A stretch of 31,463 nucleotides of DNA from Myxococcota bacterium. GTDB taxonomy: Bacteria > Myxococcota_A > Polyangia > Polyangiales > Sandaracinaceae. Both the position numbers and the translations under genes were made by a program. The notes under the pieces are model-generated. The model saw only the letters and a program-made list of their open reading frames with translations, made no database searches and was not told the origin of the DNA. Below are positions 6,154 through 29,816 of this stretch, piece after piece (positions within the stretch are counted from its first letter, which is position 1; the number at the start of each line of letters is the position of its first letter). The stretch spans positions 1 to 31,463 of the forward strand of contig JAYZQJ010000288.1 in assembly GCA_036149055.1 (NCBI GenBank). The letters run 5' to 3'.

Positions 6154-7566
6154 TTATCCGTGCCCGGATCCATCTTCCACCCACTCGACCGTCCCTCGCA
6201 GCGAGAGCGCGAGCGGCTCGGGCTGGGCGCCCTGCAGCAGCGCGTTGCTGTCCCGCGAGCGCGCCCCCGGCGCCCGGCTGACCGTGACGTGGAGGGGCCC
6301 GCCGTCGCGCGGGCGCTCCGTCACCCCGGCGACCGCCACGAGCAGCGCCTGCACCGCGGGGTCCCGGGCCTCCCCGCGCACCTCCACCGACACCACGTCG
6401 CCCACCTTCGCGCCGCCGGGGATCCAGGCCGGATCCAGGGCGCCCGGGTCGACGCGGTGGGCGAGGGTCACGTGGGTGCCGCGCAGCACCGGGTGCACCG
6501 CCCGGGCCCGGACCGCCTCTCGGCTCGCCTCGTCGAGCACGATCCAGAGCGAGCGCCTCGCCGCCGCCGCCTCGAGCCGGGCGATCGCCGCCGCGTACTT
6601 CTCCGCCCTCGCCCGGTCGCGCGCGTCCGGTGCGGGGATCCGCCCCAGATCGGAGTTGTCTCGCAGGTCCAGCAGCTTCACCCGGGTGGCGAGGCCGTCC
6701 GCCTCGATCCGGTCGAGGAACGCCTCGTAGCTCTCGCCCTCGCGCCGGGTCAGCGCGTCCACCGCCCGCAGCACCCGCTCCGGGAAGCCCTCGTCGGCCA
6801 GCCGCGCGAGCGTCCAGTGCGGGCTGTCCTCGACCACGTCGTGCAGCGCGGCCGCCATGCGCTCGTCGGGCGAGGCGGCGGCGAGCACCAGCCGCATGGG
6901 GTGATAGACGTACGGCGCGCCCGCCTTGTCGTACTGACCGAGGTGAGCCTGGGCGCAGATCGCCATCGCCCAGCCGGGCAGCCACCGCTCGATCGTCTCG
7001 AGCAGCGCGCGTCGCGCGGCGTCGAAGGTGGCCAGCAGGCGGGGGTCGACGGCGCCTTGGTAGACGGTCCGCAAGGCGCTCAGCTGCGCGTCGTGCTGGC
7101 CGGGGCGGGTGCTGAGCCGCATCAGGAGCGTGTGCCCGGCCTCCTCGGCCTCGACGAGGCTGCGCGTGTTGTGGATCTTGTCGGCGCAGCTGATCGGGAT
7201 CGCGCGGCGCGCCGCCTCGGTGTCCGCCTTCAGCCCGGCCACGTAGTCGCGGAACCGGCTGGCCTTGTCCCGGGGCTTGCCGCGGGCGTCGCGCTTGCGC
7301 TCGGTCAGGGCCTCGACCGTCGCGATCACCTCCGCCGGCATCTCCTCGCGCATGCGCGCCGCGTGCGCCGGCTGATCCTCGAGGAGGTCGTGCAGGTAGG
7401 CGGCCGCGACCTGCACCTCGTCGTCGTGCCCGTGCTGCACGAGGAGCTCCGCCACCGCCTCGAGGTGGGAGAAGTAGGGGACGCCGCCCGCCTTCCGTGT
7501 CTGCTCGGCGTGCGCGGCCCGCGCGAGCTCCCGGGCGCGATCGACCAGTCGAGTGCGGGGAGACAT
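6154..7566 (-). CDS. Tandem RelA/SpoT-type HD hydrolase (SAH/Mesh1-like) x2 plus C-terminal 2H phosphoesterase domain (~470 aa)
   Basis: HD1: AHAEQTRKAGGVPYFSH, LHDLLED, ADKIHN. HD2: AHLGQYDKAGAPYVYHP, LHDVVED, KLLDLRDN. C-terminal region has two HVT motifs (6474-6466 and 6291-6283). Confidence 0.85.
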   Translation of the reverse strand: MSPRTRLVDRARELARAAHAEQTRKAGGVPYFSHLEAVAELLVQHGHDDEVQVAAAYLHDLLEDQPAHAARMREEMPAEVIATVEALTERKRDARGKPRDKASRFRDYVAGLKADTEAARRAIPISCADKIHNTRSLVEAEEAGHTLLMRLSTRPGQHDAQLSALRTVYQGAVDPRLLATFDAARRALLETIERWLPGWAMAICAQAHLGQYDKAGAPYVYHPMRLVLAAASPDERMAAALHDVVEDSPHWTLARLADEGFPERVLRAVDALTRREGESYEAFLDRIEADGLATRVKLLDLRDNSDLGRIPAPDARDRARAEKYAAAIARLEAAAARRSLWIVLDEASREAVRARAVHPVLRGTHVTLAHRVDPGALDPAWIPGGAKVGDVVSVEVRGEARDPAVQALLVAVAGVTERPRDGGPLHVTVSRAPGARSRDSNALLQGAQPEPLALSLRGTVEWVEDGSGHG

Positions 7567-7643
7567 GGGGGCATGGTAGACGCGCCGCGTCGTCACGGGA
7601 ATGCGGGTGGTTTCGAGCCGACCGAGGCTCTAGGCTCCTCTCG

Positions 7644-8390: not shown

Positions 8391-11300
8391 TCACTCCTCG
8401 TCGCCGCGCTTCACCAGGCGGATCCGGCCGAGCGAGGACTTGCGGCGGCGGGCCGGGAGGATCTGGTCCTCGACCTGCTCGCAGTGGTCCCAGAGATCCG
8501 ACGCGGCGATCCGGAGCGTGGTCAGCACGTCCCGCGGCGCCGCGTGCGCGCGCTGGCGGGCCGACTCGATCAGCCGAGAGGCCTCGGCGCGGTCGCCCTC
8601 CGCCGCCGCCTCGATGGCGTCGAGCAGCTCGAGGTGGCCCTTGCGCAGCTCGGTGATGTGCTCGACCGGCGTGCCCCGGAGCGAGGCGGCCACGCCGCTC
8701 ATGTGCGCCGCCCACTTCCGGGCCGCCGCGCCCTCGCCGAGGCGGGCCCGCGCCGCCACCAGCACGCCGAGGAAGAACACGATCACGCCGCGCTCGCCGA
8801 TCCTCTGCAGCGTCTCGACCGCCTTCTCGATCGCCTCCGCGCCCTGCTCCCAGTTGCCCTGGAGCGCGACCGCGTAGCCGATGAGGCCACGCGACACCGC
8901 GCCGTATCGCTCCTCGCCGAGCTCGCGGAAGATCTCCTCCGAGAGATAGAGCGCCTGGTGGGCCTGATCGGGGCGCCCGTCGTCGAGGAGCTGCGCGCCG
9001 AGGTTGCTGAGGGTGATGCCCTCGTACACCCGGTCCTGCGCGTCGCGGCTCGCCTCGAGGGCGACCCGGTACATCATGGTGGCCGCCTGGGTCTCGCCCT
9101 GCTCGCTCAGCAGGTTCGCCAGCCGGAGCAGGACCACGCCCTCGCCCCGCCGGTCGCCCGCGTCCCGCATGGCGGCGAGCGCGTCGCGGTAGCGCTTGGC
9201 GGCGTCGGTCCCCTGACCGCAGCGCACCTCGACCATCGCGAGCTCGCTGCGGGCCTCGGCCATCAGCTCGGGCTCGGCGGTGCTCTTCGCGAGCTCGAGG
9301 CCGCGGTTGGCCGCCTCGAGCGCGGGCTGGAAGTCGAACTGCCAGCCGTGGGCGCGGGCCTCGGCGAGGGCGCCGCGGGCGGCGAGCGAGGGGCGCGGCC
9401 CGGCGCTGCGGGCGAGCTCGAGCAGGGCGACCAGGCTGCGGTGATCGCCGCGCCGCGCGAGGGTCGGCTCCAGGCAGAGCGCGGCCCGCATCGCGCGATC
9501 GCCGTCGCGCTGCGCCACCGCCATGCCGTGGATGCCGCGGAGCTCCGCCTCGGCGGTGCCGAGCAGGGCGAAGGCGCGCCCGGCGCCGGGGCCCCGGAGG
9601 CTGGTCAGCAGCTCCTCACCCGCGTCGAGGAAGTAGGCGGCGTGGCGCTCGCGCGTCGCCTCCACGAGCACCGGGTCGGTGACGCTCGCGCAGAGATCGC
9701 GGACGCTCTGGTGCAGCCGGAACCGCCCGCCCTCCTGCAAGAGCAGGGACTTGTCGACGAGCGCCGCGAGGGCCTTGGGGGCGGACTCGACCCGCAGCAC
9801 CGCGGTGGCCGAGATGCCGGTGAACGAGCCGTGGAAGACCGAGCACTGGAGCAGGGCGCTGCGCTCCTCGGGGCTGCAGCCCTGCCATGCGTCCCGCAGG
9901 GCCGCCTCGGTGACGTCCTCGGTGACGCCGGGCGACGAGGGCCGCAGCTCGCCGGCCATCACCGACGGCGTCTCGTTGGCGGCCCGCGCGGCGGTCACCA
10001 CGATGGCGAGCGGGAGGCCGTCGAGCCGGCGGAGCACGCGCTCCACCTCGCGGCGACGGTCCGGGTTCCGCCAGCGCTCCACCGCCTCCGCGCCGCCGAC
10101 CTCCTCGAGCCGGGCGAAGAAGAGGTCCGCCGCCGGGCCGCGCAGCTCCTTGGTGTACGAGGCGCGCAGCGGCTCCAGCCGGATCGACTCGCCGCGCTCC
10201 ACCGGGATGCGCTCCCGGGAGGTGATGACGAAGATCGTCTCCGGGGCCTGGTCGAGCCAGGCGCCGAAGAGCGCCGCCGCCTCCTCGAGCAGGTGGTCGA
10301 GCTGATCGAAGACCACGACCGCGGGGCCCGCGCTCGCCAGCAGCTCGCCCGCGTCCTGCACGGGGTCCCGGGAGCCGCGCGGCTGGACGCTGGAGGGGGC
10401 GAGCTTGGCGATCACGAGGTGGGCCGCGTCGTCGCCGGTGCGCGCCTGCTGGGCGTCGCAGAAGAGCGCCCGCGCGCCGGTCGTGTCGCGCACCTGGGCC
10501 GCCCACGCGACCGCCGCCCGCGTCTTGCCCACGCCGCCGCGCCCGTGGAGACAGAGCACGCGGACGCCGCGCACGATCGCGTTGTCCATCGCGCGCAGCT
10601 CGTCGTCGCGCCCGAGGAGCGCGTCCTCGAACTCCGGGAGGTCCGGGTCCTCGGGCGGCGGCGCGAGCGTCTCGGTCGGCGTGCGGAAGACGCCGGAGTC
10701 GGTCGTCGCCTCGAGCGGCGTGAGCCCCCCGGGGCCGAGATCGGGACACGAGGCGCGCATCCACTTGGCGAGCTCCTCGCGGCCGGTCGGGCGGCCGAAC
10801 TCCGACAGCCAGCTCTGCACGGCGTCGGCGAACGCCTCCGCGCTCGCGTAGCGATCCTCGGGGCGCGCCGCGGTGGCCCGGGCGACGATGGCGTCGAACC
10901 GGAAGTCGAGGCGCGGATCGAGCTCCGACGGGGGCGGGATCTCGCCCGGCGCGTCGTCCGCCTGATCGAGCGGGCGGCCGGTGCCGAGCTCCCAGAGCAC
11001 GACGCCGAGCGCGTAGACGTCCGCGCGCCGGTCGATCGCGCCCTCGTCCGCCCGCTGCTCGGGCCCCACGTAGGCGCTCGCGCGCATGCCCTTGCGCGCC
11101 GCCCAGCGCGACGAGGACGAGAGCGCCGCGCTGAAGTCGGCGACCTTCACCTCGCCGAGCTGCGAGATGAGGATGTTCCCCGGGCGGATGTCCCGGTGCA
11201 CGACCTCGAGCGCCTCCCCGTCCGCGCCCTGGGCCTCGTGCGCGTAGTGCAGGCCCCGCGCCGCCTCGGCGACGACGTGCGCGCCGATCTCGATCGGGAT

Positions 11301-11645
11301 CCGGGTGCCGACGCCGCGCGTGTAGCCGATCAGGTTGGCCAGCGACGGGCCGTCGACCAGCTCGAGGGCCATGAAGTAGTCGGACCCGTCCCGGGACAGG
11401 TCGAGGGCCTGGACGATGTTGGGGTGGCGGAGGTGCGCCACGAGGTTCGCCTCGTCGAGGAAGAGCTGCACGCGCTCCGGCTCGTGGCTCAGCTCCGAGC
11501 GGAGGCACTTGAGCACGATCCTCCGGCGGAAGCCGCCTTCCCCCTCCAGGTGAGCGAGGAACACCTCGGCGACGTCGCCCACCCCGAGCCGTTGCCCGAG
11601 GAGATAGCGACCTCGCCTGTGCTCCTCCGGGACCGGCGCAGCCAT
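8391..11645 (-). CDS. Ser/Thr kinase (degenerate motifs) - STAND-class P-loop NTPase - TPR protein, 1084 aa
   Basis: Kinase motifs LGVGDVAEV, IVLK, HRDIRPGNILI, DFS, YVGPEQ, DVYALG. Walker A HGRGGVGKT, Walker B VVVFDQLDH, ITSRE, LDGLPLAI. TPR-like repeats DRRGEGVVLLRLANL and DRVYEGITLSNLGA. Confidence 0.9.
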   Translation of the reverse strand: MAAPVPEEHRRGRYLLGQRLGVGDVAEVFLAHLEGEGGFRRRIVLKCLRSELSHEPERVQLFLDEANLVAHLRHPNIVQALDLSRDGSDYFMALELVDGPSLANLIGYTRGVGTRIPIEIGAHVVAEAARGLHYAHEAQGADGEALEVVHRDIRPGNILISQLGEVKVADFSAALSSSSRWAARKGMRASAYVGPEQRADEGAIDRRADVYALGVVLWELGTGRPLDQADDAPGEIPPPSELDPRLDFRFDAIVARATAARPEDRYASAEAFADAVQSWLSEFGRPTGREELAKWMRASCPDLGPGGLTPLEATTDSGVFRTPTETLAPPPEDPDLPEFEDALLGRDDELRAMDNAIVRGVRVLCLHGRGGVGKTRAAVAWAAQVRDTTGARALFCDAQQARTGDDAAHLVIAKLAPSSVQPRGSRDPVQDAGELLASAGPAVVVFDQLDHLLEEAAALFGAWLDQAPETIFVITSRERIPVERGESIRLEPLRASYTKELRGPAADLFFARLEEVGGAEAVERWRNPDRRREVERVLRRLDGLPLAIVVTAARAANETPSVMAGELRPSSPGVTEDVTEAALRDAWQGCSPEERSALLQCSVFHGSFTGISATAVLRVESAPKALAALVDKSLLLQEGGRFRLHQSVRDLCASVTDPVLVEATRERHAAYFLDAGEELLTSLRGPGAGRAFALLGTAEAELRGIHGMAVAQRDGDRAMRAALCLEPTLARRGDHRSLVALLELARSAGPRPSLAARGALAEARAHGWQFDFQPALEAANRGLELAKSTAEPELMAEARSELAMVEVRCGQGTDAAKRYRDALAAMRDAGDRRGEGVVLLRLANLLSEQGETQAATMMYRVALEASRDAQDRVYEGITLSNLGAQLLDDGRPDQAHQALYLSEEIFRELGEERYGAVSRGLIGYAVALQGNWEQGAEAIEKAVETLQRIGERGVIVFFLGVLVAARARLGEGAAARKWAAHMSGVAASLRGTPVEHITELRKGHLELLDAIEAAAEGDRAEASRLIESARQRAHAAPRDVLTTLRIAASDLWDHCEQVEDQILPARRRKSSLGRIRLVKRGDEE

Positions 11646-11659
11646 GCCGCATCCTAACA
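11646..11659 (-). promoter_or_regulatory. Extended -10 element (TGnTAGGAT) 5 nt upstream of ATG 11645; likely leaderless promoter
   Basis: Minus strand reads TGT-TAGGAT-GCGGC-ATG, with no SD sequence. Confidence 0.5.
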
Positions 11660-11799
11660 GTTGTGGCGGACGCCAGGGTAGGGCGTATCTCCGCCCTCGG
11701 TCCGGCGTTGCCCATGTCCCGAGCGGGTGTAGGCTTCTGACCGGACAGGAACGGAGTGACTGGCGCCCTCCGGGGAGACGCCCGTCGCGAGGACACCAG

Positions 11800-14700
11800 T
11801 TGTTCCACTACTTCGGATACGGCTCGAACATGAGCGCCACCAGCCTCGCGGCGAAGGGCGTGGAGTCCGAGCGCTCCGAGCCCGCGGTGCTACGCGACTG
11901 GCGGCTCTCCTTCACCGTCCCGAACTTCTTCGCCATCGAGGGATGCACGGGGAACATCGTCCCCGACGAGGGACGCGCGGTGCACGGCGTGCTCTACGCC
12001 TGCGACGACCGCTACCTGCCGGTGCTCGACGAGCTCGAGGCGGTCGACGTCGCCTACGCCCGGCGCGAGCTCGAGGTCGAGACCTACGGCGGCGAGCGCG
12101 TGGTCGCCTACGTGTACGTCGGGCTGCCGGCGCGCGTGGTCCCGGAGGGCATGCCCTCGCTGCGCTACCGCAACATCCTCGTGCAGGGCGCGCGGGACGC
12201 GGGGCTGAGGGACGACTACGTCGCCTGGCTCGGCGACCTCCCGGTGGTGGAGCGGCCGGACCCGGAGCCGTTCCTGCACCCCGAGGAGGGCGAGCGCCTG
12301 ACGCCCGAGCAGCTCGCGAGCCGCTCCTCCCACGTCGCGCTCGCGGGCGCGGTCTTCGACATGTCGACCGCGCCGCCCGAGCACGCCTACCTCGAGCGCT
12401 TGTTCGCGGGGCGCGACGCGACCCTCTTCTTCCTCAAGCGGATGGACACGAGCGACGGCTCGGAGACCCTCGCCGACATCAGCGAGGGGAACCTGACCGA
12501 GGTGCAGCGCCGCTACCTCGACGCCTACCTGCACGAGTTCGATCGCGTCTATCGCTACGTCGGCCGGCTCCAGTACGGCGGCGCGACCAAGGGGCGCGGG
12601 GAGCGCATCGCGTCGGCCGCCCGAGCCGCCCACACCTTCGACCCCGCGCGGGCGCACGAGCGGCATGGCGAGATCCTCGTGCCGTCCCGCCGCGTGCTGA
12701 ACGAGGCCGAGCAGACCAACCGCCGCCTCGGCCACGAGAACCTCGGCTTCCTCTCGGAGGTCCACGGCTTCGCGCCGATCGAGCCGCCGCGGCTCTCGCT
12801 GCCCCCGAGCCACGCGGCCTGGGATCAGGCGGTCGAGGACCTCACGTCGCTCTACCGCGGCCTCGGGCTGCGACGCCGGCTCGAGGCGATGCCGGTGCTG
12901 CCGGCCGATCCCGAGCACCTCCCCGACGCGCACCTGCTGCGGGCGGGCGCGGTGCTCTCGATGCTGGCGCACGCCTACTGGTACGTCGAGACGCAGCCCC
13001 CGCAGTCGCTGCCGCCGAGCCTCGCCAGGCCCTGGGCGGAGGTGCGGCGGCGCCTCGACCGACCGCAAGAGGTCCTGAGCTACATCGACCTGATCGTCTA
13101 CAACTGGCGGCTCCTCGACCCCCGGGCCGACGACCCGCGCCGCGTGGAGAACATGCGGCTGGCGATCCCCACGGTCGACAACCAGGAGGAGCGCGTCTTC
13201 TACCTGACGCAGTTCGAGATCCTCAGCCGCTGCAGCCCGGTGATCGGCGCGGTGGTCCGGGCCCAGGAGTCGGTCGCGCGCGACGACCCCGACGGCCTCG
13301 AGACCGAGCTCCACCTGATCATGGAGGCGCTCGAGCGGGTGGTCCGGGACTCGCTGCTCAAGATCAACCCCAACCCGCACGGGCCGCACTACGTCGACCC
13401 GGTGGTGTGGGCCAAGACGGTCGCGCCCTTCGCCGTGCCCTTCCGCGAGGGCGTGCAGGGCCCGAGCGGCACCTCGTCGCCCATCTTCAACCTGCTCGAC
13501 ACCTTCTTCGGCCGCCGCGGCCACGCGACCTTCCTCGGCAAGGAGATCAAGGCGCTCCGGAGCGGCTACCCGAAGTACTGGCAGGAGATCATCGCGGCCA
13601 CCGGCGAGGTCTCGATCAAGGACTACGTCGCGCGCGTCGACAAGCCGTGGCTCTCCGGGCTGCTCAAGGACGCCATCCAGGTCTACGCGGGGCAACAGGG
13701 CTTCCTCGGTCGCCACCGCATGAAGGTCTACGGCTACCTCGAGCTGGCGTTCAAGGTGGGCCGCAGCGTGACGATCGGCGGCTTCTCCGGGGTCTTCTCG
13801 GACCGCACCTGGGATCAGGTCGACTCGGAGCTCGAGTACGCGCGCAAGGAGCGCATGGCGAGCTTCCCGCACGGCGCCCACCCGGCCCGCGTCCGCGAGG
13901 CGCGCAAGACGACCGAGCGAGGGACCGAGCGGGTGCAGCACGTGGTGCTCGACGTGCGCGGCGCCGGCGTGCGCTACGAGCCGGGTGACCGCTGCTACGT
14001 CCTGCCCGAGGCCGCGCCCGAGCTCGTCGATCGCACCCTGGCCGCGCTCGCGAGCACCGGCGACGAGGTGATCGCGCTCACCGACGAGTGGAAGGAGGCC
14101 GTGTCCTTCCGCCCGCAGCGCGCCTCGGAGGACACGTTGACGCTGCGCGAGCTGCTCCGCTACGGGCGGCTGCGCCCGGTGGAGCCGCGCGTCGCCGAGG
14201 CGCTGCACGCGGTGACCCAGAGCGACATGCTCCTCGCCGCGATCCGCGAGCAGACCACCGAGCGCTGGGAGCTGTGGGATCTGCTCGAGGCGCTGCGCGC
14301 CGAGGGCTGGGATCCGCGGCGCCTGATCGACGCGCCGCCGACGTCGACCGAGCACATCGCCCGGGTGGTGCCGCCCGAGACGTTCCGCGCCTACTCGATC
14401 GCCTCGGTGATGGACGAGCCCGACGCGACCGCGGCGACCGAGGTGCACCTCACGGTGGGCCGCATCCGCTACGAAGACGAGGGCAAGCGCCGGGCCGGCA
14501 CCGCGTCGAGCTTCCTGGTCCGCGCCGCCGGGCGGGACGAGCCGGTCTCGATCGCGGTGCACCACCCGCCGCGCTTCGCCCTGCCGCCCGACCCGCAGAC
14601 GCCGGTGATCTTGATCGCCGGCGGCACCGGCATCTCACCGTTCCGCTCGTTCATCCTGGAGCGCGCCCGGCAGCCGAAGGCCGGGCCGACCTGGCTCCTC

Positions 14701-16506
14701 CTCGGCGTGCGCACGCGCGAGCACCTCCACTACCGGGACGAGCTCCAGCGCTTCGTCCGCGAGGGCAAGCTCCGGCTCGAGGTCGCCTTCTCGCGGGACG
14801 AGGCGAAGCTGCGCAAGGTGCAGGCGCTCCAGGGCATCCAGCGCATCACGGTGCGGCCGGGGGAGAAGCGTCGGGTGGACGAGCTGGTGCTCGACGAGCG
14901 CATCGGCGGCGACCTGCTCCGGCTGCTCCGCGGCACCACCACCTCGCCCCCCGCCCAGATCTACGTCTGCGGCCACGCTCGCTTCGCCCGCTCGGCCCAC
15001 GCCGCCCTCAAGCGCCTGCTCATGCAGGCGGAGCGGGGCGACGACGGGGTCCGTCGCGCGGCGGCCGAGCGCACCCTCCAGCGGCTCGCGGCCGAGGGGC
15101 GCTACCTCTTCGAGGTCTTCACCGACAACCGCAGCTGGGATCGCGATCGGGCGCCCCTCGACGTCTCGCAGGTGGTCGAGCGCAACGACGCCGAGCACGG
15201 CTACTGGATGGTGATCGACGGCACCGTCTACGACGTGACCGAGCTGCTCGAGCTGCACCCCGGCGGTCGCTCGGTGCTCCGCGGCTACACCGGCATGGAC
15301 GCCACCCAGGGCTACATGCGGGTGCACGAGGGCCGCACCGAGGTCGACGCGATGCGCGGCATGTTCGAGGTCGGCAAGCTCCGCGCGATCGACTTCGGGG
15401 GCGTGCGCGGCACCGTCTACTACGACGGGGTGGCCCAGACGGTCGCGCTCGCCGCCCTGCACCGCGCCTGGGTGAAGCTGACCTACCTGGTGGTGGAGAT
15501 GCAGAACGCGCTGGTCGCCGACCAGTCGCTGCAGCTGGGCAAGACCACCCGCGACGAGCCCCTCGAGCCGCGCTCGCCCTATCGCTGGCAGCGGGCGGTC
15601 GAGACCCACCAGCGCTTCCTCTACGCCTACCTCGATCCCCTCAGCGGGCCGGCGCTCTCCGACGTGCAGGTCATGACCTGCGGGCTGCTCGGCGATCCCC
15701 GCCAGGCGTCGGCCCTCCAGCTGCGCCTCGAGGCGGTGCGGGACTCCGAGAACGCGCGGCTCGGCGACGCCGCGCCGCACGAGCTCCACGAGCGCCTAGA
15801 GCAGCTGCTCGCGGACGAGAGCGCGCCGGGGTCGGCCGAGTGGGAGGGCCTCGAGCACGCGGTCCTGGCCCTCGAGGAGCTCGACCGCGGCCTGCTGCGC
15901 GACCTGAAGGCGACCCTCTCGGAGGCGCTGCGGGCCTTCGAGCGCCACGGGGCGCACACCCTGGAGGACGCGGGAGAGACCCTGATCTCGGTGCTCGACT
16001 CGGTGATCGTCCTCATCGAGGAGTATCACCGCACCGTCAGGTGGCGCCTGACGCGCTCGGGGCTACTACCCGCTACAATTCCCCCACCCCGACCCAGCTC
16101 ATCGCAGACCATGTTGAAGTCCGTCGTATCGACTTCCCTCTGGCACATGGTGGAGGACCTCGACCGCAAGGTCGTCCTCCTCCGCCGCAGCGCCGCCCCC
16201 GTGGAGTCCATCCACGATCTCGTCGAGCAGAACGAGATGGTCATCCAGTCCATCCGCGCCGAGCACGCCGAGTGGGGCATCGTCGTCGACATGCGCCAGG
16301 CGCCGTCGCGGAACGACCCCGAGTTCGAGGGCGCCATGCGCAAGCTCCGGGCGGCGACCGGTCAGTTCAAGCGCGTGGCGCTCCTGGTGACCAGCGCGAC
16401 CGGCATGCTCCAGGTCAACCGCCTGAGCCGCGACGAGGGCGCCCAGACCACCTGGGCCACCCAGTCCGAAGACGCCGCCCTCCGCTTCGCCGCCGGCTCG
16501 GCCTGA
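11800..16506 (+). CDS. Multidomain redox enzyme: gamma-glutamylcyclotransferase + MAPR-type cyt-b5-like + IDO-like heme domain + FAD/NADPH reductase + cytochrome b5 + helical + STAS/SEC14-like (~1568 aa)
   Basis: TTG at 11800 with GAGGA upstream. GGCT: YFGYGSNM, LDELEAV. MAPR-like: VFDM, FAGRDAT, YVGRL. IDO-like: GFAP, LAHAYWY, LSYIDLIVYNWR, GPSGTSSPIFNLLDTFFG, RHRMKVYGYL. CPR/CysJ-type FNR module: YEPGD, RAYSIAS, GTASSFL, IAGGTGISPFRSF, AFSRD, IYVCG, RYLFEVF. Cyt b5: WMVIDGTVYDVT, HPGG, DATQGYMRVH. STAS/SEC14-like: IVVDMRQAPSRNDPEFE, RVALLV. Confidence 0.88.
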   Translation: MFHYFGYGSNMSATSLAAKGVESERSEPAVLRDWRLSFTVPNFFAIEGCTGNIVPDEGRAVHGVLYACDDRYLPVLDELEAVDVAYARRELEVETYGGERVVAYVYVGLPARVVPEGMPSLRYRNILVQGARDAGLRDDYVAWLGDLPVVERPDPEPFLHPEEGERLTPEQLASRSSHVALAGAVFDMSTAPPEHAYLERLFAGRDATLFFLKRMDTSDGSETLADISEGNLTEVQRRYLDAYLHEFDRVYRYVGRLQYGGATKGRGERIASAARAAHTFDPARAHERHGEILVPSRRVLNEAEQTNRRLGHENLGFLSEVHGFAPIEPPRLSLPPSHAAWDQAVEDLTSLYRGLGLRRRLEAMPVLPADPEHLPDAHLLRAGAVLSMLAHAYWYVETQPPQSLPPSLARPWAEVRRRLDRPQEVLSYIDLIVYNWRLLDPRADDPRRVENMRLAIPTVDNQEERVFYLTQFEILSRCSPVIGAVVRAQESVARDDPDGLETELHLIMEALERVVRDSLLKINPNPHGPHYVDPVVWAKTVAPFAVPFREGVQGPSGTSSPIFNLLDTFFGRRGHATFLGKEIKALRSGYPKYWQEIIAATGEVSIKDYVARVDKPWLSGLLKDAIQVYAGQQGFLGRHRMKVYGYLELAFKVGRSVTIGGFSGVFSDRTWDQVDSELEYARKERMASFPHGAHPARVREARKTTERGTERVQHVVLDVRGAGVRYEPGDRCYVLPEAAPELVDRTLAALASTGDEVIALTDEWKEAVSFRPQRASEDTLTLRELLRYGRLRPVEPRVAEALHAVTQSDMLLAAIREQTTERWELWDLLEALRAEGWDPRRLIDAPPTSTEHIARVVPPETFRAYSIASVMDEPDATAATEVHLTVGRIRYEDEGKRRAGTASSFLVRAAGRDEPVSIAVHHPPRFALPPDPQTPVILIAGGTGISPFRSFILERARQPKAGPTWLLLGVRTREHLHYRDELQRFVREGKLRLEVAFSRDEAKLRKVQALQGIQRITVRPGEKRRVDELVLDERIGGDLLRLLRGTTTSPPAQIYVCGHARFARSAHAALKRLLMQAERGDDGVRRAAAERTLQRLAAEGRYLFEVFTDNRSWDRDRAPLDVSQVVERNDAEHGYWMVIDGTVYDVTELLELHPGGRSVLRGYTGMDATQGYMRVHEGRTEVDAMRGMFEVGKLRAIDFGGVRGTVYYDGVAQTVALAALHRAWVKLTYLVVEMQNALVADQSLQLGKTTRDEPLEPRSPYRWQRAVETHQRFLYAYLDPLSGPALSDVQVMTCGLLGDPRQASALQLRLEAVRDSENARLGDAAPHELHERLEQLLADESAPGSAEWEGLEHAVLALEELDRGLLRDLKATLSEALRAFERHGAHTLEDAGETLISVLDSVIVLIEEYHRTVRWRLTRSGLLPATIPPPRPSSSQTMLKSVVSTSLWHMVEDLDRKVVLLRRSAAPVESIHDLVEQNEMVIQSIRAEHAEWGIVVDMRQAPSRNDPEFEGAMRKLRAATGQFKRVALLVTSATGMLQVNRLSRDEGAQTTWATQSEDAALRFAAGSA

Positions 16507-16592
16507 CGCGTCCGCATTGAGCCCGCCGGATTAACGCGCCGCTAATGCCGGCCCAGCGCACGGTTCGCCTCGCATTCACCAAGGAGCGAACC

Positions 16593-17093: not shown

Positions 17094-18476
<1,383 letters not shown>

Positions 18477-28056: not shown

Positions 28057-29025
28057 TCAGACCCGTGCCCGCTCCTGCCGCTCCTCGAGGTCGCGGCAGA
28101 GCGCCTGGAACCAGGCGACGCCCGCCTCGTGCGCGCGGCTCAGGGTGCCTTGCCGGTAGAGCCGGCTCCGGGCGCCTCGGGCCGCGCGCTCCACGATCGC
28201 GTCGTCCTCCGCCTCGACCGCGTCGAGCCCCGCGCCCGCGCCGCGCTCGCGCTTCGCCGGGTCGCTGACGTAGGCCCGGTAGACCACCCGGGTGCGGGTG
28301 GGCCCGAGCGGCTGCACCGCGTTCAGGCTCACGCCCCAGGGGTAGAGGTTGAGCGCGGTCAGGGGCCAGAGGAAGAGGTAGTAGCCGCCGACCCGGCGAC
28401 GGGCGTCGGGATGGTCGGCGGGCAGGTCGAACGCCGGCTCCCCGTCGGCCGCGTCGCCGATCTGCAGCGCCGAGCGCTCGAAGAGCTCGGTCGTGTAGCC
28501 GGTGAGGTCGAGCGCGCGGGTCAAGGAGGGGTGCACGTAGGGGATGTGCAGACCCTCGAGGTAGTTCTCGATCCAGAGCGGCCACGGCGCCTCGAGCGTG
28601 AAGGCGCGGTCGCCCGCCGGGTCGTGCGTGAGCGCGCCCCACGGGAAGAACGAGAGCCGGTCCCGGGTCGGGCCCACGAGCGCCTCGAACGCGGACTCGG
28701 GGTCGATCGACGCGAAGCGCATCGGGCCGAGCGAGGCGGACGCGAGCGCGGGGAGCGGCTCGTCCGGGATGGCGTCGAAGCCGGGCGCCGCGCTGACCGT
28801 TCCGTCGAGGCGGAAGCGCCGGCCGTGGTAGGGGCAGCGGATCGACGGGCCGTCGGTGGGCGCCTCGAGCAGGCACGCCGCCCGGTGCGTGCAGACGTTG
28901 GAGAGGACACGGTCCCGGGTGAGCAGCACCGGCTCGTCGAGCGCGCCCGGGAGCAGCGTCGCCGGCCACGCCGCGTGGGCCCGCTGGGTGTCGACGAAGC
29001 TCCAGGCGCGCGCGAGGTCGATCAT
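28057..29025 (-). CDS. Rieske non-heme iron oxygenase alpha subunit, choline-monooxygenase-like (~322 aa)
   Basis: Rieske ligands NVCTHRA and CPYHG. Mononuclear Fe motifs ENYLEGLHIPYVH and EAEDDAIVE. ATG overlaps the upstream TGA (ATGA). Confidence 0.88.
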   Translation of the reverse strand: MIDLARAWSFVDTQRAHAAWPATLLPGALDEPVLLTRDRVLSNVCTHRAACLLEAPTDGPSIRCPYHGRRFRLDGTVSAAPGFDAIPDEPLPALASASLGPMRFASIDPESAFEALVGPTRDRLSFFPWGALTHDPAGDRAFTLEAPWPLWIENYLEGLHIPYVHPSLTRALDLTGYTTELFERSALQIGDAADGEPAFDLPADHPDARRRVGGYYLFLWPLTALNLYPWGVSLNAVQPLGPTRTRVVYRAYVSDPAKRERGAGAGLDAVEAEDDAIVERAARGARSRLYRQGTLSRAHEAGVAWFQALCRDLEERQERARV

Positions 29026-29816
29026 CGCGCCGCCGCCCGGCGCGCGCGGAGCCCGAGCCAGCCCGCGAGCGCGAACGCCGGCAGCCAGAGGGCGAGGAAC
29101 CCGAAGAACGCCGGCGTGAACGGGCCCGGGCGGTCGCCGACGTAGGGCGCGACCGGGCCCACGCCGCTCAGCGCGATCTGGAGCGCGGGGCCGAAGCCCT
29201 GCGCGGCGCCCCACCAACTGAAGGCGGCCAGGAAGAGGAGATGGAAGCGGTGCTCCACCTCGCGGGGCGCGCGCGTCAGCCGGCTCGAGAGCGCCGCCGC
29301 GACCGAGAACGTGGCGATCATCCAGAGGGCGCCGGTCCACGGATCGAAGCGCAGCACGATCGCGATCGCCGCGAGCGCGCCGAGCCCCGCGAGCGACGGG
29401 CCGACGAGGCGCTCCGCCGGGTGGGCGCGTCTCCGGGCGAAGGCCGCCCAGCCGCGGCGCACGAAGAAGAGCACGCAGAGGGCGGCGTGCAGGAAGGCGA
29501 GCCGCGCCGGGATCGAGCTGGGCATGCCGAGCCCGGCGTGGGCGACGTGGTTCGCCTCGAAGCGGACGAGGAGGCGCACCAGATCGACCCCGATCCCGGT
29601 CACCGCGGCCGCGCCCATGCCCCAGAGGAACGCGGCGCCGACTCGCCGGTGCGCCGGGCCGCCCTTGCGCGCGAGCAGCGCGATCACGCCCGCGACGACC
29701 GCGGCGCCGGCGATCGCCGCGTGCACCCCGACCGCGAGCACGAAGGCGAGGTCCGCCGCGTCGCTGCCGTAGTCCACCGGCTTGTGGAGGAGCGCGGTGT
29801 GCGAGGGCTCGGGCAC
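29022..29816 (-). CDS. Integral membrane protein (DUF2306-like), 264 aa
   Basis: About 7 hydrophobic helices. H..IAG...G.IALLARKGGPAHRRVG motif. Confidence 0.7.
   Translation of the reverse strand: MPEPSHTALLHKPVDYGSDAADLAFVLAVGVHAAIAGAAVVAGVIALLARKGGPAHRRVGAAFLWGMGAAAVTGIGVDLVRLLVRFEANHVAHAGLGMPSSIPARLAFLHAALCVLFFVRRGWAAFARRRAHPAERLVGPSLAGLGALAAIAIVLRFDPWTGALWMIATFSVAAALSSRLTRAPREVEHRFHLLFLAAFSWWGAAQGFGPALQIALSGVGPVAPYVGDRPGPFTPAFFGFLALWLPAFALAGWLGLRARRAAAR

Follow-up and report, generated by a model that had tools for sequence, protein, structure and literature searches.

What does a bacterial protein do that joins seven domains, an indoleamine 2,3-dioxygenase (IDO)-like heme domain and its apparent electron donors among them, in a single polypeptide? 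This question is raised by a 1568-residue open reading frame (ORF) in a stretch of 31,463 nucleotides (hereafter, the window) from a marine Myxococcota bacterium of the family Sandaracinaceae (assembly GCA_036149055.1, contig JAYZQJ010000288.1). The reading that we tentatively favor, at a probability of roughly 45%, is that of a self-sufficient heme monooxygenase of the IDO branch, whose product is joined to a thiol and whose gamma-glutamyl cyclotransferase (GGCT) domain acts afterwards, as GliK does in the gliotoxin pathway. The ORF and its parts are as follows (CPR, cytochrome P450 reductase; FAD and FMN, flavin adenine dinucleotide and mononucleotide; pLDDT, per-residue model confidence):

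11789..11793, + strand: Shine-Dalgarno-like GAGGA, 6 nt before the TTG start at 11800 (sequence)
11800..16506, + strand: ORF P0001, 1568 amino acids, spanned by the independent contigs X2 and X11
11800..12249, + strand: GGCT domain, residues 1-150 (Pfam GGACT/AIG2_2; human GGCT, E 4e-5)
12280..12585, + strand: MAPR/PGRMC1-like b5-fold domain, residues 161-262 (profile search; travels with GGCT)
12697..13863, + strand: IDO-fold heme domain, residues 300-688 (Pfam IDO; model pLDDT 90.5; alignments)
13882..15129, + strand: CysJ/CPR-type FAD and NAD(P)H module without FMN domain (Pfam; CysJ alignment; conservation)
15151..15384, + strand: cytochrome b5 with bis-His pair H1153 (in HPGG) and H1176 (Pfam Cyt-b5; both His in 120/120)
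15400..16059, + strand: helical bundle, predicted clamp of the IDO domain against b5 (model pLDDT 94.5; complex model)
16114..16503, + strand: STAS/SpoIIAA-like domain, residues 1439-1568 (VIA-align; three paralogues elsewhere in the genome by tblastn)

The heme domain was recognized by Pfam (IDO, residues 319-515, 99 bits; Pfam matches are above cut-off unless stated otherwise), and its model matched IDO2 at Z 41.1 (rmsd 1.8, 349 aligned; Foldseek E about 1e-14) and IDO1 at Z 39.1 (rmsd 2.0, 349 aligned), followed by PrnB (Z 25.6), tryptophan 2,3-dioxygenase (TDO; Z 14.1) and MarE (Z 11.1). Membership in the PrnB/MarE groups was rejected on these lower Z values and the lack of a sequence match. 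From its position and invariance we infer that H639 (13714) is the counterpart of IDO1 His346; both it and D567 (13498), which aligns with IDO1 Asp274, are invariant in 120/120 close and 133/133 distant sequences, the former being the query and 119 listed close homologues, and the latter 144 listed distant representatives minus 11 short segments.

The pocket, however, departs from that of the human enzymes. A542 aligns with the Arg of the IDO2 segment GIRIFLSGW, which we take to be IDO1 R231; this position is Ala in 120/120 close homologues and Arg in 0/133 distant segments. The GTGG position of the JK loop, placed by motif position, reads TIGGF (13771-13785); 157 of 263 proteins share this motif, most of the remainder carry other T- or S-initial variants, and none of the aligned sequences has Gly at the first GTGG position. 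Moreover, Q471 stands at IDO1 S167 and W537 at F226, while Y126, F163 and the DE loop of IDO1 are retained. Q471 is present in 79/133 distant members, pocket variation between subfamilies as in enzymes with differing substrates, and Ala at positions 538, 542 and 545 suggests room for an organic ligand. K539, considered as a stand-in for R231, was set aside, as the complex model described below pairs it with D1241 of the helical bundle, outside the pocket. The initial annotation of the window, made from the letters alone, was thus right that the segment at 12730-13860 would model as an IDO fold, and overlooked the replacement of the GTGG loop and of the Arg that grips tryptophan.

In IDO1, R231 ion-pairs with the tryptophan carboxylate and the GTGG loop binds the ammonium group (an excerpt of PMC5700043). 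The host genome encodes TDO, as do 28 of 51 carrier genomes, bacterial TDO and IDO have been reported as mutually exclusive (in part of PMC4191572), and no kynureninase above cut-off was found in the host. Given that the Arg231 position is never Arg, that GTGG reads TIGG and that the host has TDO, the enzyme is probably not a tryptophan dioxygenase. Dioxygenation by IDO and TDO uses no extra electrons, whereas monooxygenation by MarE takes two, the external donor being the primary determinant (PMC12312684); therefore, the fused and conserved electron chain would point to an electron-consuming reaction. Human IDO itself has monooxygenase activity (PMC12921851).

Sequence and fold establish that all cofactor sites are present and conserved. 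In the flavin module, Pfam matched FAD_binding_1 (residues 695-905) and NAD_binding_1 (938-1066), the closest PDB sequence is CysJ (E 6.6e-36), and the cysJ model covers this part only at model positions 236-524 of 597. The FAD/NADPH motifs of diflavin reductases are present (RAYS 863-866, GGTG 941-944, FSR 997-999, C1057 and E1105-V-F1107), together with a Ser/Cys/acid triad, whose customary roles in such a module we assume here; their conservation is high (Y865, C1057, E/D1105 and S/T998 each 120/120, S866 118/120, R999 101/120). There was no Pfam match to an FMN flavodoxin and no FMN-loop pattern, and the ~10 residues between the IDO and FAD domains leave no room for one. The Cyt-b5 match (residues 1124-1194, 60 bits) contains H1153 (15256) and H1176 (15325), which, like H639, are found in 120/120 aligned proteins. 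For the helical domain, considered as a di-iron, heme-oxygenase-like or globin fold, Foldseek gave no match at E<=0.001 and VIA-align returned generic bundles only (best Z 8.5); we tentatively read it as a scaffold. The C-terminal domain has no Pfam match, and its fold aligned with 2q3l (Z 10.7, rmsd 3.4, 120 aligned), 4xs5 (Z 8.7) and several STAS chains (Z 7.5-8.7).

At the N-terminus, Pfam matched GGACT (residues 4-108) and AIG2_2 (61-144), and the YGSN motif and catalytic Glu of BtrG/AIG2-like GGCTs are both present. The latter, E80 (12037-12039), aligns with the Glu replaced by Gln in PDB 3cry, which we take to be the catalytic E98Q mutant of GGCT, and is kept in 69/73 fused homologues and in 120/120 listed stand-alone GGCT-MAPR proteins. 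The adjoining MAPR-like call is the weakest of the seven: a 16-sequence profile of residues 161-262 gave four matches, of which the best three were MAPRs (PGRMC1 at E 0.016 and two plant proteins at E 0.026 and 0.031), but the segment has no Pfam match. Its putative heme ligands vary, with H195 in 66/120 and Y197 in 28/120 listed stand-alone forms; Y197 is found in 67/73 fusions, though out of register by two residues.

The ORF is real and non-chimeric. It forms a single open frame on the + strand up to the stop codon at 16504-16506, with a GC content of 0.73, 0.46 and 0.97 at codon positions 1, 2 and 3, and TTG 11800 behind GAGGA is likely its translation start; homologues start at the same place, with the consensus MFYYFGYGSN. 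Single contigs from two other seawater studies (X2 and X11) cover 10500-16509 with 13 and 23 substitutions and zero gaps, which rules out a chimeric assembly, and 23 of the 25 listed strain differences within the ORF are synonymous. RNA-library contigs (X14 and X18) cover most of the gene, though contigs as such are no proof of transcription; a sigma-70-like promoter was looked for at the gene and none was found. The initial annotation had thus correctly described one uninterrupted ORF with ordered blocks, and its seven parts and their coordinates hold, including the GGCT, CPR/CysJ-type, b5 and STAS-like identities, the three His positions and the missing flavodoxin.

Treating the seven parts as one system, as the initial annotation did, is not supported. 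A search for near-length proteins returned 288 homologues among 8000 scored candidates; of the best 120 of these, which include the query, the 119 others comprise 74 with all seven parts, 30 with the core and STAS, 7 with the core only and 8 with partial N-terminal modules. A profile of the IDO domain reached further, to 2456 clusters at 50% identity (400 at E<=1e-30), from the best 150 of which 144 new representatives were classified: 75 contain the core only (IDO-FAD-NAD-b5-helical), 31 contain IDO and b5 without the flavin module (the helical domain being detected in 23), and the remainder are IDO only (16), IDO-FAD(-NAD) (15) or other (7). The 16 IDO-only and 15 b5-less entries, all of them short, may be fragments, and one protein (P0137) looks frameshifted. 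The helical domain was never seen without b5 among the 144. The fixed core is therefore IDO, b5 and the helical bundle, and the family is built on a core of four parts to which add-ons are attached: GGCT-MAPR and STAS also exist alone, STAS homologues occurring as separate genes (e.g., L001).

The GGCT-MAPR pair is a separate, older, mobile module, with 281 stand-alone matches of ~262 amino acids, 118 of the 120 listed ending directly after the MAPR part. Among their named hosts (P0292-P0411) are Marinobacterium, Guyparkeria, Chromatiaceae, Ca. Thiodiazotropha, Prosthecobacter and Stappia, and the proteins are often mislabelled; neither 401 sampled genomes (the class of G110) nor plasmids yielded a genomic context for them. 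Further fusions in the enzyme family involve FHA, PAS, DsbA (P0154) and reductive-aminase-like domains (P0218, P0255). An insert inside the flavin module occurs in P0223 and P0261, with an EF-hand above the Pfam cut-off in the former and discerned only by eye in the latter, which suggests Ca2+ control.

To follow the family across genomes, we recognized 107 candidate stretches in GTDB as relatives and kept 80 loci, many with short flanks. They lie in Myxococcota, Oligoflexia, Chloroflexota, Bacteroidota, Poribacteria, Actinomycetota and Acidobacteriota, and include the named isolates Oligoflexus tunisiensis, Aquimarina agarilytica and Chitinophaga solisilvae. The distribution is patchy: the full-length form was found in 3/32 genomes of the host's family (G000, G001 and G003) and in 2/301 of a phylum sample, the host counted, and a search of metagenomes for FNR-less loci (those without the flavin module) found one only. 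Public labels for the family (sulfite reductase flavoprotein, cytochrome b5 domain protein, GGCT) hide the heme enzyme.

How would electrons reach the IDO heme? We modeled the IDO domain and the b5-helical part, as two pieces of one chain with two hemes, from alignments built in this analysis. The predicted complex reached an ipSAE of 0.87, a score of model confidence, against 0.00 for the best control; the mark applied to this score was reached by 116/157 solved pairs and 2/215 mismatched pairs. Between runs, at least 93% of contacts were shared, and partner pLDDT was at least 89. In the model, b5 presents its HPGG loop (1153-1159) and residues 1170-1175 to IDO residues 524-526, 641-654 (the H639 helix) and 665-667, and the helical domain grips IDO residues 533-540 and 352-356. 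The docking would explain the family's invariant surface motifs: E1233, D1241, E1268 and R1272 of the helical domain, all invariant, lie within the predicted interface, and conservation there is 0.65 (30 positions) vs 0.45 in the rest of the domain (190 positions). To our knowledge, no IDO-b5 complex has been solved.

In vitro, CPR supports human IDO1 whether or not b5 is added, and this reduction is described as unclear in vivo (both in an excerpt of PMC13142367). Since 31/144 listed distant representatives keep IDO and b5 without the flavin module, and given the docking model, a chain from NAD(P)H through FAD and b5 to the IDO heme, with b5 in place of the flavodoxin, is very probable. The relay by b5, suggested in the initial annotation, thus gains support while still being a prediction.

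We next turn to the gene neighborhoods, from which, along with precedent, the proposed chemistry and thiol step are drawn. Thiol-related neighbors were found at 22/80 loci. Glutathione S-transferase (GST)-like genes occur at five Oligoflexia loci (L003, L005, L007, L012 and L033), accompanied by a Cys/Met pyridoxal-phosphate lyase (C-S lyase) at L012 and L033 and by DCC1 at one of the five. At eight Bacteroidota loci there is a DsbA-like gene, with HxlR in seven of these. A bacillithiol-type cassette, whole or partial and in varying order, is found at nine loci and comprises BshA, BshB1, a PIG-L/cNMP protein and a 386-amino-acid protein; at L013, BshA and BshB1 exceed curated cut-offs. The 386-amino-acid protein (L013:16114-17274 and seven similar ORFs) has a Cys-rich C-x24-C-x-C stretch and no Pfam match, and may be an unrecognized cysteine-adding enzyme of Chloroflexota. 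Because BshA occurs above cut-off exactly once in each of the nine cassette genomes, and was not found in seven other Chloroflexota-type carriers, cassette and enzyme appear to move together. GshB, surveyed for 50 of the 80 loci (49 genomes), was present in 6/6 myxobacterial-type GGCT genomes, 2/10 Oligoflexia, 8/8 kinase-type genomes and 0/25 others. The host itself has GshB, with no BshA above cut-off and no BshC found.

These neighbors bear on the order of events. In the initial annotation, GGCT was thought to free the substrate; the core of most relatives has no GGCT, and a role on a thiol conjugate of the product fits better, because the neighbors are GSTs, a C-S lyase and bacillithiol genes with an Mca-like protein. 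A documented order of this kind runs from the monooxygenase GliC through the GST GliG to the GGCT GliK (in part of PMC6923255). We thus propose that, within a soluble protein, the helical bundle would clamp the IDO domain, holding the b5 heme edge against the proximal-His helix; NAD(P)H would pass a hydride to FAD, from which single electrons would travel through b5 to the IDO heme. With two electrons per turnover, the ferrous-oxy heme would insert one oxygen atom into a substrate that is probably a small hydrophobic or aromatic compound without an alpha-amino-acid handle, an indole-type compound being the obvious candidate. The reactive product, perhaps of epoxide or imine type, would react with the low-molecular-weight thiol of the host. 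Where this is glutathione, as in the present host, a GST would conjugate the product and the fused GGCT, for which the MAPR fold would serve as a binding cap, would then cleave off the gamma-glutamyl group as 5-oxoproline, with C-S lyase acting next; in Chloroflexota, the bacillithiol cassette with its Mca-like PIG-L protein may fill the same slot by amidase trimming. STAS, FHA, PAS and CBS partners would regulate the enzyme.

Several observations weigh against this proposal. No thiol gene was found at 58/80 loci, many of them on short contigs, and signaling neighbors, at 44/80 loci, are commoner. Neighbor groups follow a quick-search tree, so that they amount to a handful of independent events. 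A clean glutathione/bacillithiol swap was only partly borne out by the GshB and BshA surveys: kinase-type genomes have GshB in 8/8 cases though their enzymes lack GGCT, and both GshB matches in the ten GGCT-type Oligoflexia are below cut-off. The Mca-like label of the PIG-L protein (E 8e-12) is far below cut-off and serves as a lead only, and the BshC-like label of the 386-amino-acid neighbor was likewise set aside as a lead, having only an ESM Atlas likeness of 0.87-0.88 and neither Pfam nor PDB support. No substrate or pathway gene adjoins the enzyme in the window, inspection of ORFs beside five FNR-less loci showed no reductase gene, and a class III cyclase fused in place of STAS (L034:8001-13382) is, like the signaling neighbors, poorly explained. 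As to the active site, TDO with an SLGGS loop still performs ~95% dioxygenation (PMC12312684), making the loop argument weak, and the R118A change in MarE lowers affinity only ~12-fold (an excerpt of PMC11904535), so that loss of the Arg is compatible with tryptophan binding.

The signaling neighbors lead to another reading, in which the IDO fold now serves a gas, as a nitric oxide (NO) dioxygenase, a nitrite reductase, a sulfide oxidase or a heme sensor that its own reductase keeps ferrous. Here, one electron would be spent per NO or nitrite turnover, by flavohemoglobin or cytoglobin/b5 logic on a non-globin fold; the bundle would signal to STAS or a cyclase, and the target opened by GGCT would be S-nitrosoglutathione or a similar adduct of glutathione. 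The links to cyclases, STAS and kinases are better explained in this way than by a monooxygenase: a class III cyclase lies directly downstream at three loci (L004:4715-6007, L029:12278-13402 and L051:3657-4793) besides the fusion in L034, a CBS protein lies upstream at 25 loci and a PAS hybrid kinase at 15, and to these may be added the FHA, PAS and EF-hand fusions and the redox-stress neighbors HxlR, DsbA and DCC1. (A heme-binding PAS in the adjacent kinase was considered and dropped, its conserved His and Cys being nothing diagnostic.) The lost amino-acid anchors and a distal Gln/Tyr/Trp set would suit a gas, and neither globin nor H-NOX was found in the host genome (96% complete). Precedents come from partial texts: molluscan IDO-like myoglobins lost tryptophan activity (PMC4191572), IDO1 shows nitrite reductase activity (PMC9786828), and b5 and its reductase serve NO scavenging by cytoglobin (PMC9706631). 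Yet the distal Gln471 is not kept throughout the distant members, the three pocket Ala residues would leave space for an organic ligand, 75/144 listed representatives have no output domain, and 5/49 carrier genomes contain near-full-length flavohemoglobin matches, a count with no baseline, which makes any anti-correlation with flavohemoglobin uninformative. We regard the gas reading as the main rival, albeit unlikely, and as distinctly unlikely its extension to a non-globin, non-NOS heme system by which NO or sulfide, as a gas signal derived from thiol adducts, is made, removed or sensed. If true, the latter would independently parallel the NO/soluble guanylate cyclase pair: in bacteria, an IDO-fold heme with its own reductase and b5 would be coupled to PAS kinases, nucleotide cyclases and STAS switches, while other members would come under EF-hand (Ca2+) control.

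Could the enzyme instead act as a 2,3-dioxygenase on tryptophan or an indoleamine, equipped with a reactivation system of its own in which b5 and the reductase keep the heme ferrous, as reported for human IDO1? The fold, far nearer to IDO2 and IDO1 than to PrnB, TDO or MarE, the retained Y126, F163 and DE loop, and the in vitro support of IDO1 by CPR all speak for it, and TDO was not detected in 23/51 carrier genomes, many of them incomplete. With the Arg and first Gly missing from every aligned sequence, TDO present in the host and no kynurenine-pathway gene among the annotated recurrent neighbor clusters, we consider it very unlikely; R248W is also reported to attenuate IDO2 (PMC4238401). 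Least likely is that GGCT acts at the outset, cleaving a gamma-glutamyl conjugate so that the heme domain can oxidize the freed amine or amino acid. The catalytic Glu of the fusions and the retention of the fusion in 74/119 listed close homologues are consistent with it, but the heme domain is nearly unchanged without GGCT (112 positions are at least 95% conserved over 120 proteins), GGCT-MAPR is an independent mobile module, and the annotated recurrent neighbors include GSTs and no gamma-glutamyl ligase.

In the window, the enzyme's only neighbor is a divergent Ser/Thr kinase-NTPase-TPR gene (8391-11645, - strand), 155 bp from its start and kept in G001; its product could regulate the STAS domain. 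Past the stop codon, segment 16510-17090 looks like a strain-variable insert: it holds a 114-amino-acid ORF without Pfam match, G001 lacks it between the corresponding two genes, its depth is lower in X2 and X11, and contigs of three runs break at 16509. Elsewhere in the window lie genes for a tandem HD_4 protein (6154-7596, - strand), a tandem FKBP isomerase with an acidic N-terminus (17094-18476, - strand) and a Rieske oxygenase alpha subunit (28057-29340, - strand), none of which shows a sign of a link to the fused enzyme. In G003, outside the 80 loci, a response-regulator/thioredoxin-reductase-like fusion (L093:6872-8977) lies upstream of a seven-part homologue.

No paper on the fused architecture was found in open-access PMC and bioRxiv. 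New are the modular add-ons, the FNR-less form, the family-wide loss of the tryptophan anchors, the docked complex, and the connections to thiols and cyclases. MarE depends on ascorbate in vitro (PMC12312684), and the electron donor of His-ligated heme aromatic oxygenases is an open question, for which this family offers a covalent IDO-b5-reductase unit. Transfer from b5 to IDO, and the switch between mono- and dioxygenation, become testable in one soluble protein, including from the named isolates, and the self-sufficient monooxygenase that we favor would be a P450-BM3-like biocatalyst on a His-ligated heme.

Compared with known systems, the enzyme is a member of the IDO structural family (human IDO1/IDO2, Pfam PF01231), with the same two-domain fold, His/Asp heme pair, Y126/F163 wall and DE loop, that fails the features of a tryptophan dioxygenase at Arg231 and GTGG. 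It is 18-25% identical to the human proteins, differs by R231->A, F226->W, S167->Q and GTGG->TIGG and by a conserved insert of ~10 residues after the TIGG loop, and has fused to it the reductase, b5 and clamp, where IDO1 is reducible by CPR/b5 in trans. With the His-ligated heme-dependent aromatic oxygenases (MarE, PrnB, SfmD and TyrH) it shares the superfamily and, by analogy, a monooxygenation that needs an outside donor; the MarE loop, SLGGR vs TIGGF, is likewise non-GTGG, but MarE keeps its carboxylate-binding Arg118 and has no fused redox partner, and both PrnB and MarE are structurally more distant than IDO1 and IDO2. P450 BM3, NOS and CysJ/CPR have the same type of FAD/NADPH module, joined in BM3 and NOS to a heme catalytic domain; unlike them, the present enzyme has no FMN domain, carries b5 after the FAD module and uses an IDO-fold heme domain with a His ligand. 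In flavohemoglobin, and in cytoglobin with b5 and b5 reductase, a His-ligated heme is similarly fed single electrons from an FNR-type flavin, and molluscan IDO-like myoglobin shows the IDO fold repurposed for O2; here the heme domain has an IDO and not a globin fold, and gas chemistry is only a candidate. The gliotoxin order of monooxygenase, GST and GGCT (GliC/GliG/GliK) matches the gene set at the Oligoflexus loci as an analogy of logic, GliC being a separate fungal enzyme and no nonribosomal peptide synthetase or scaffold gene being seen here. Of all these systems, the fused enzyme would work most like a self-sufficient MarE-type monooxygenase.

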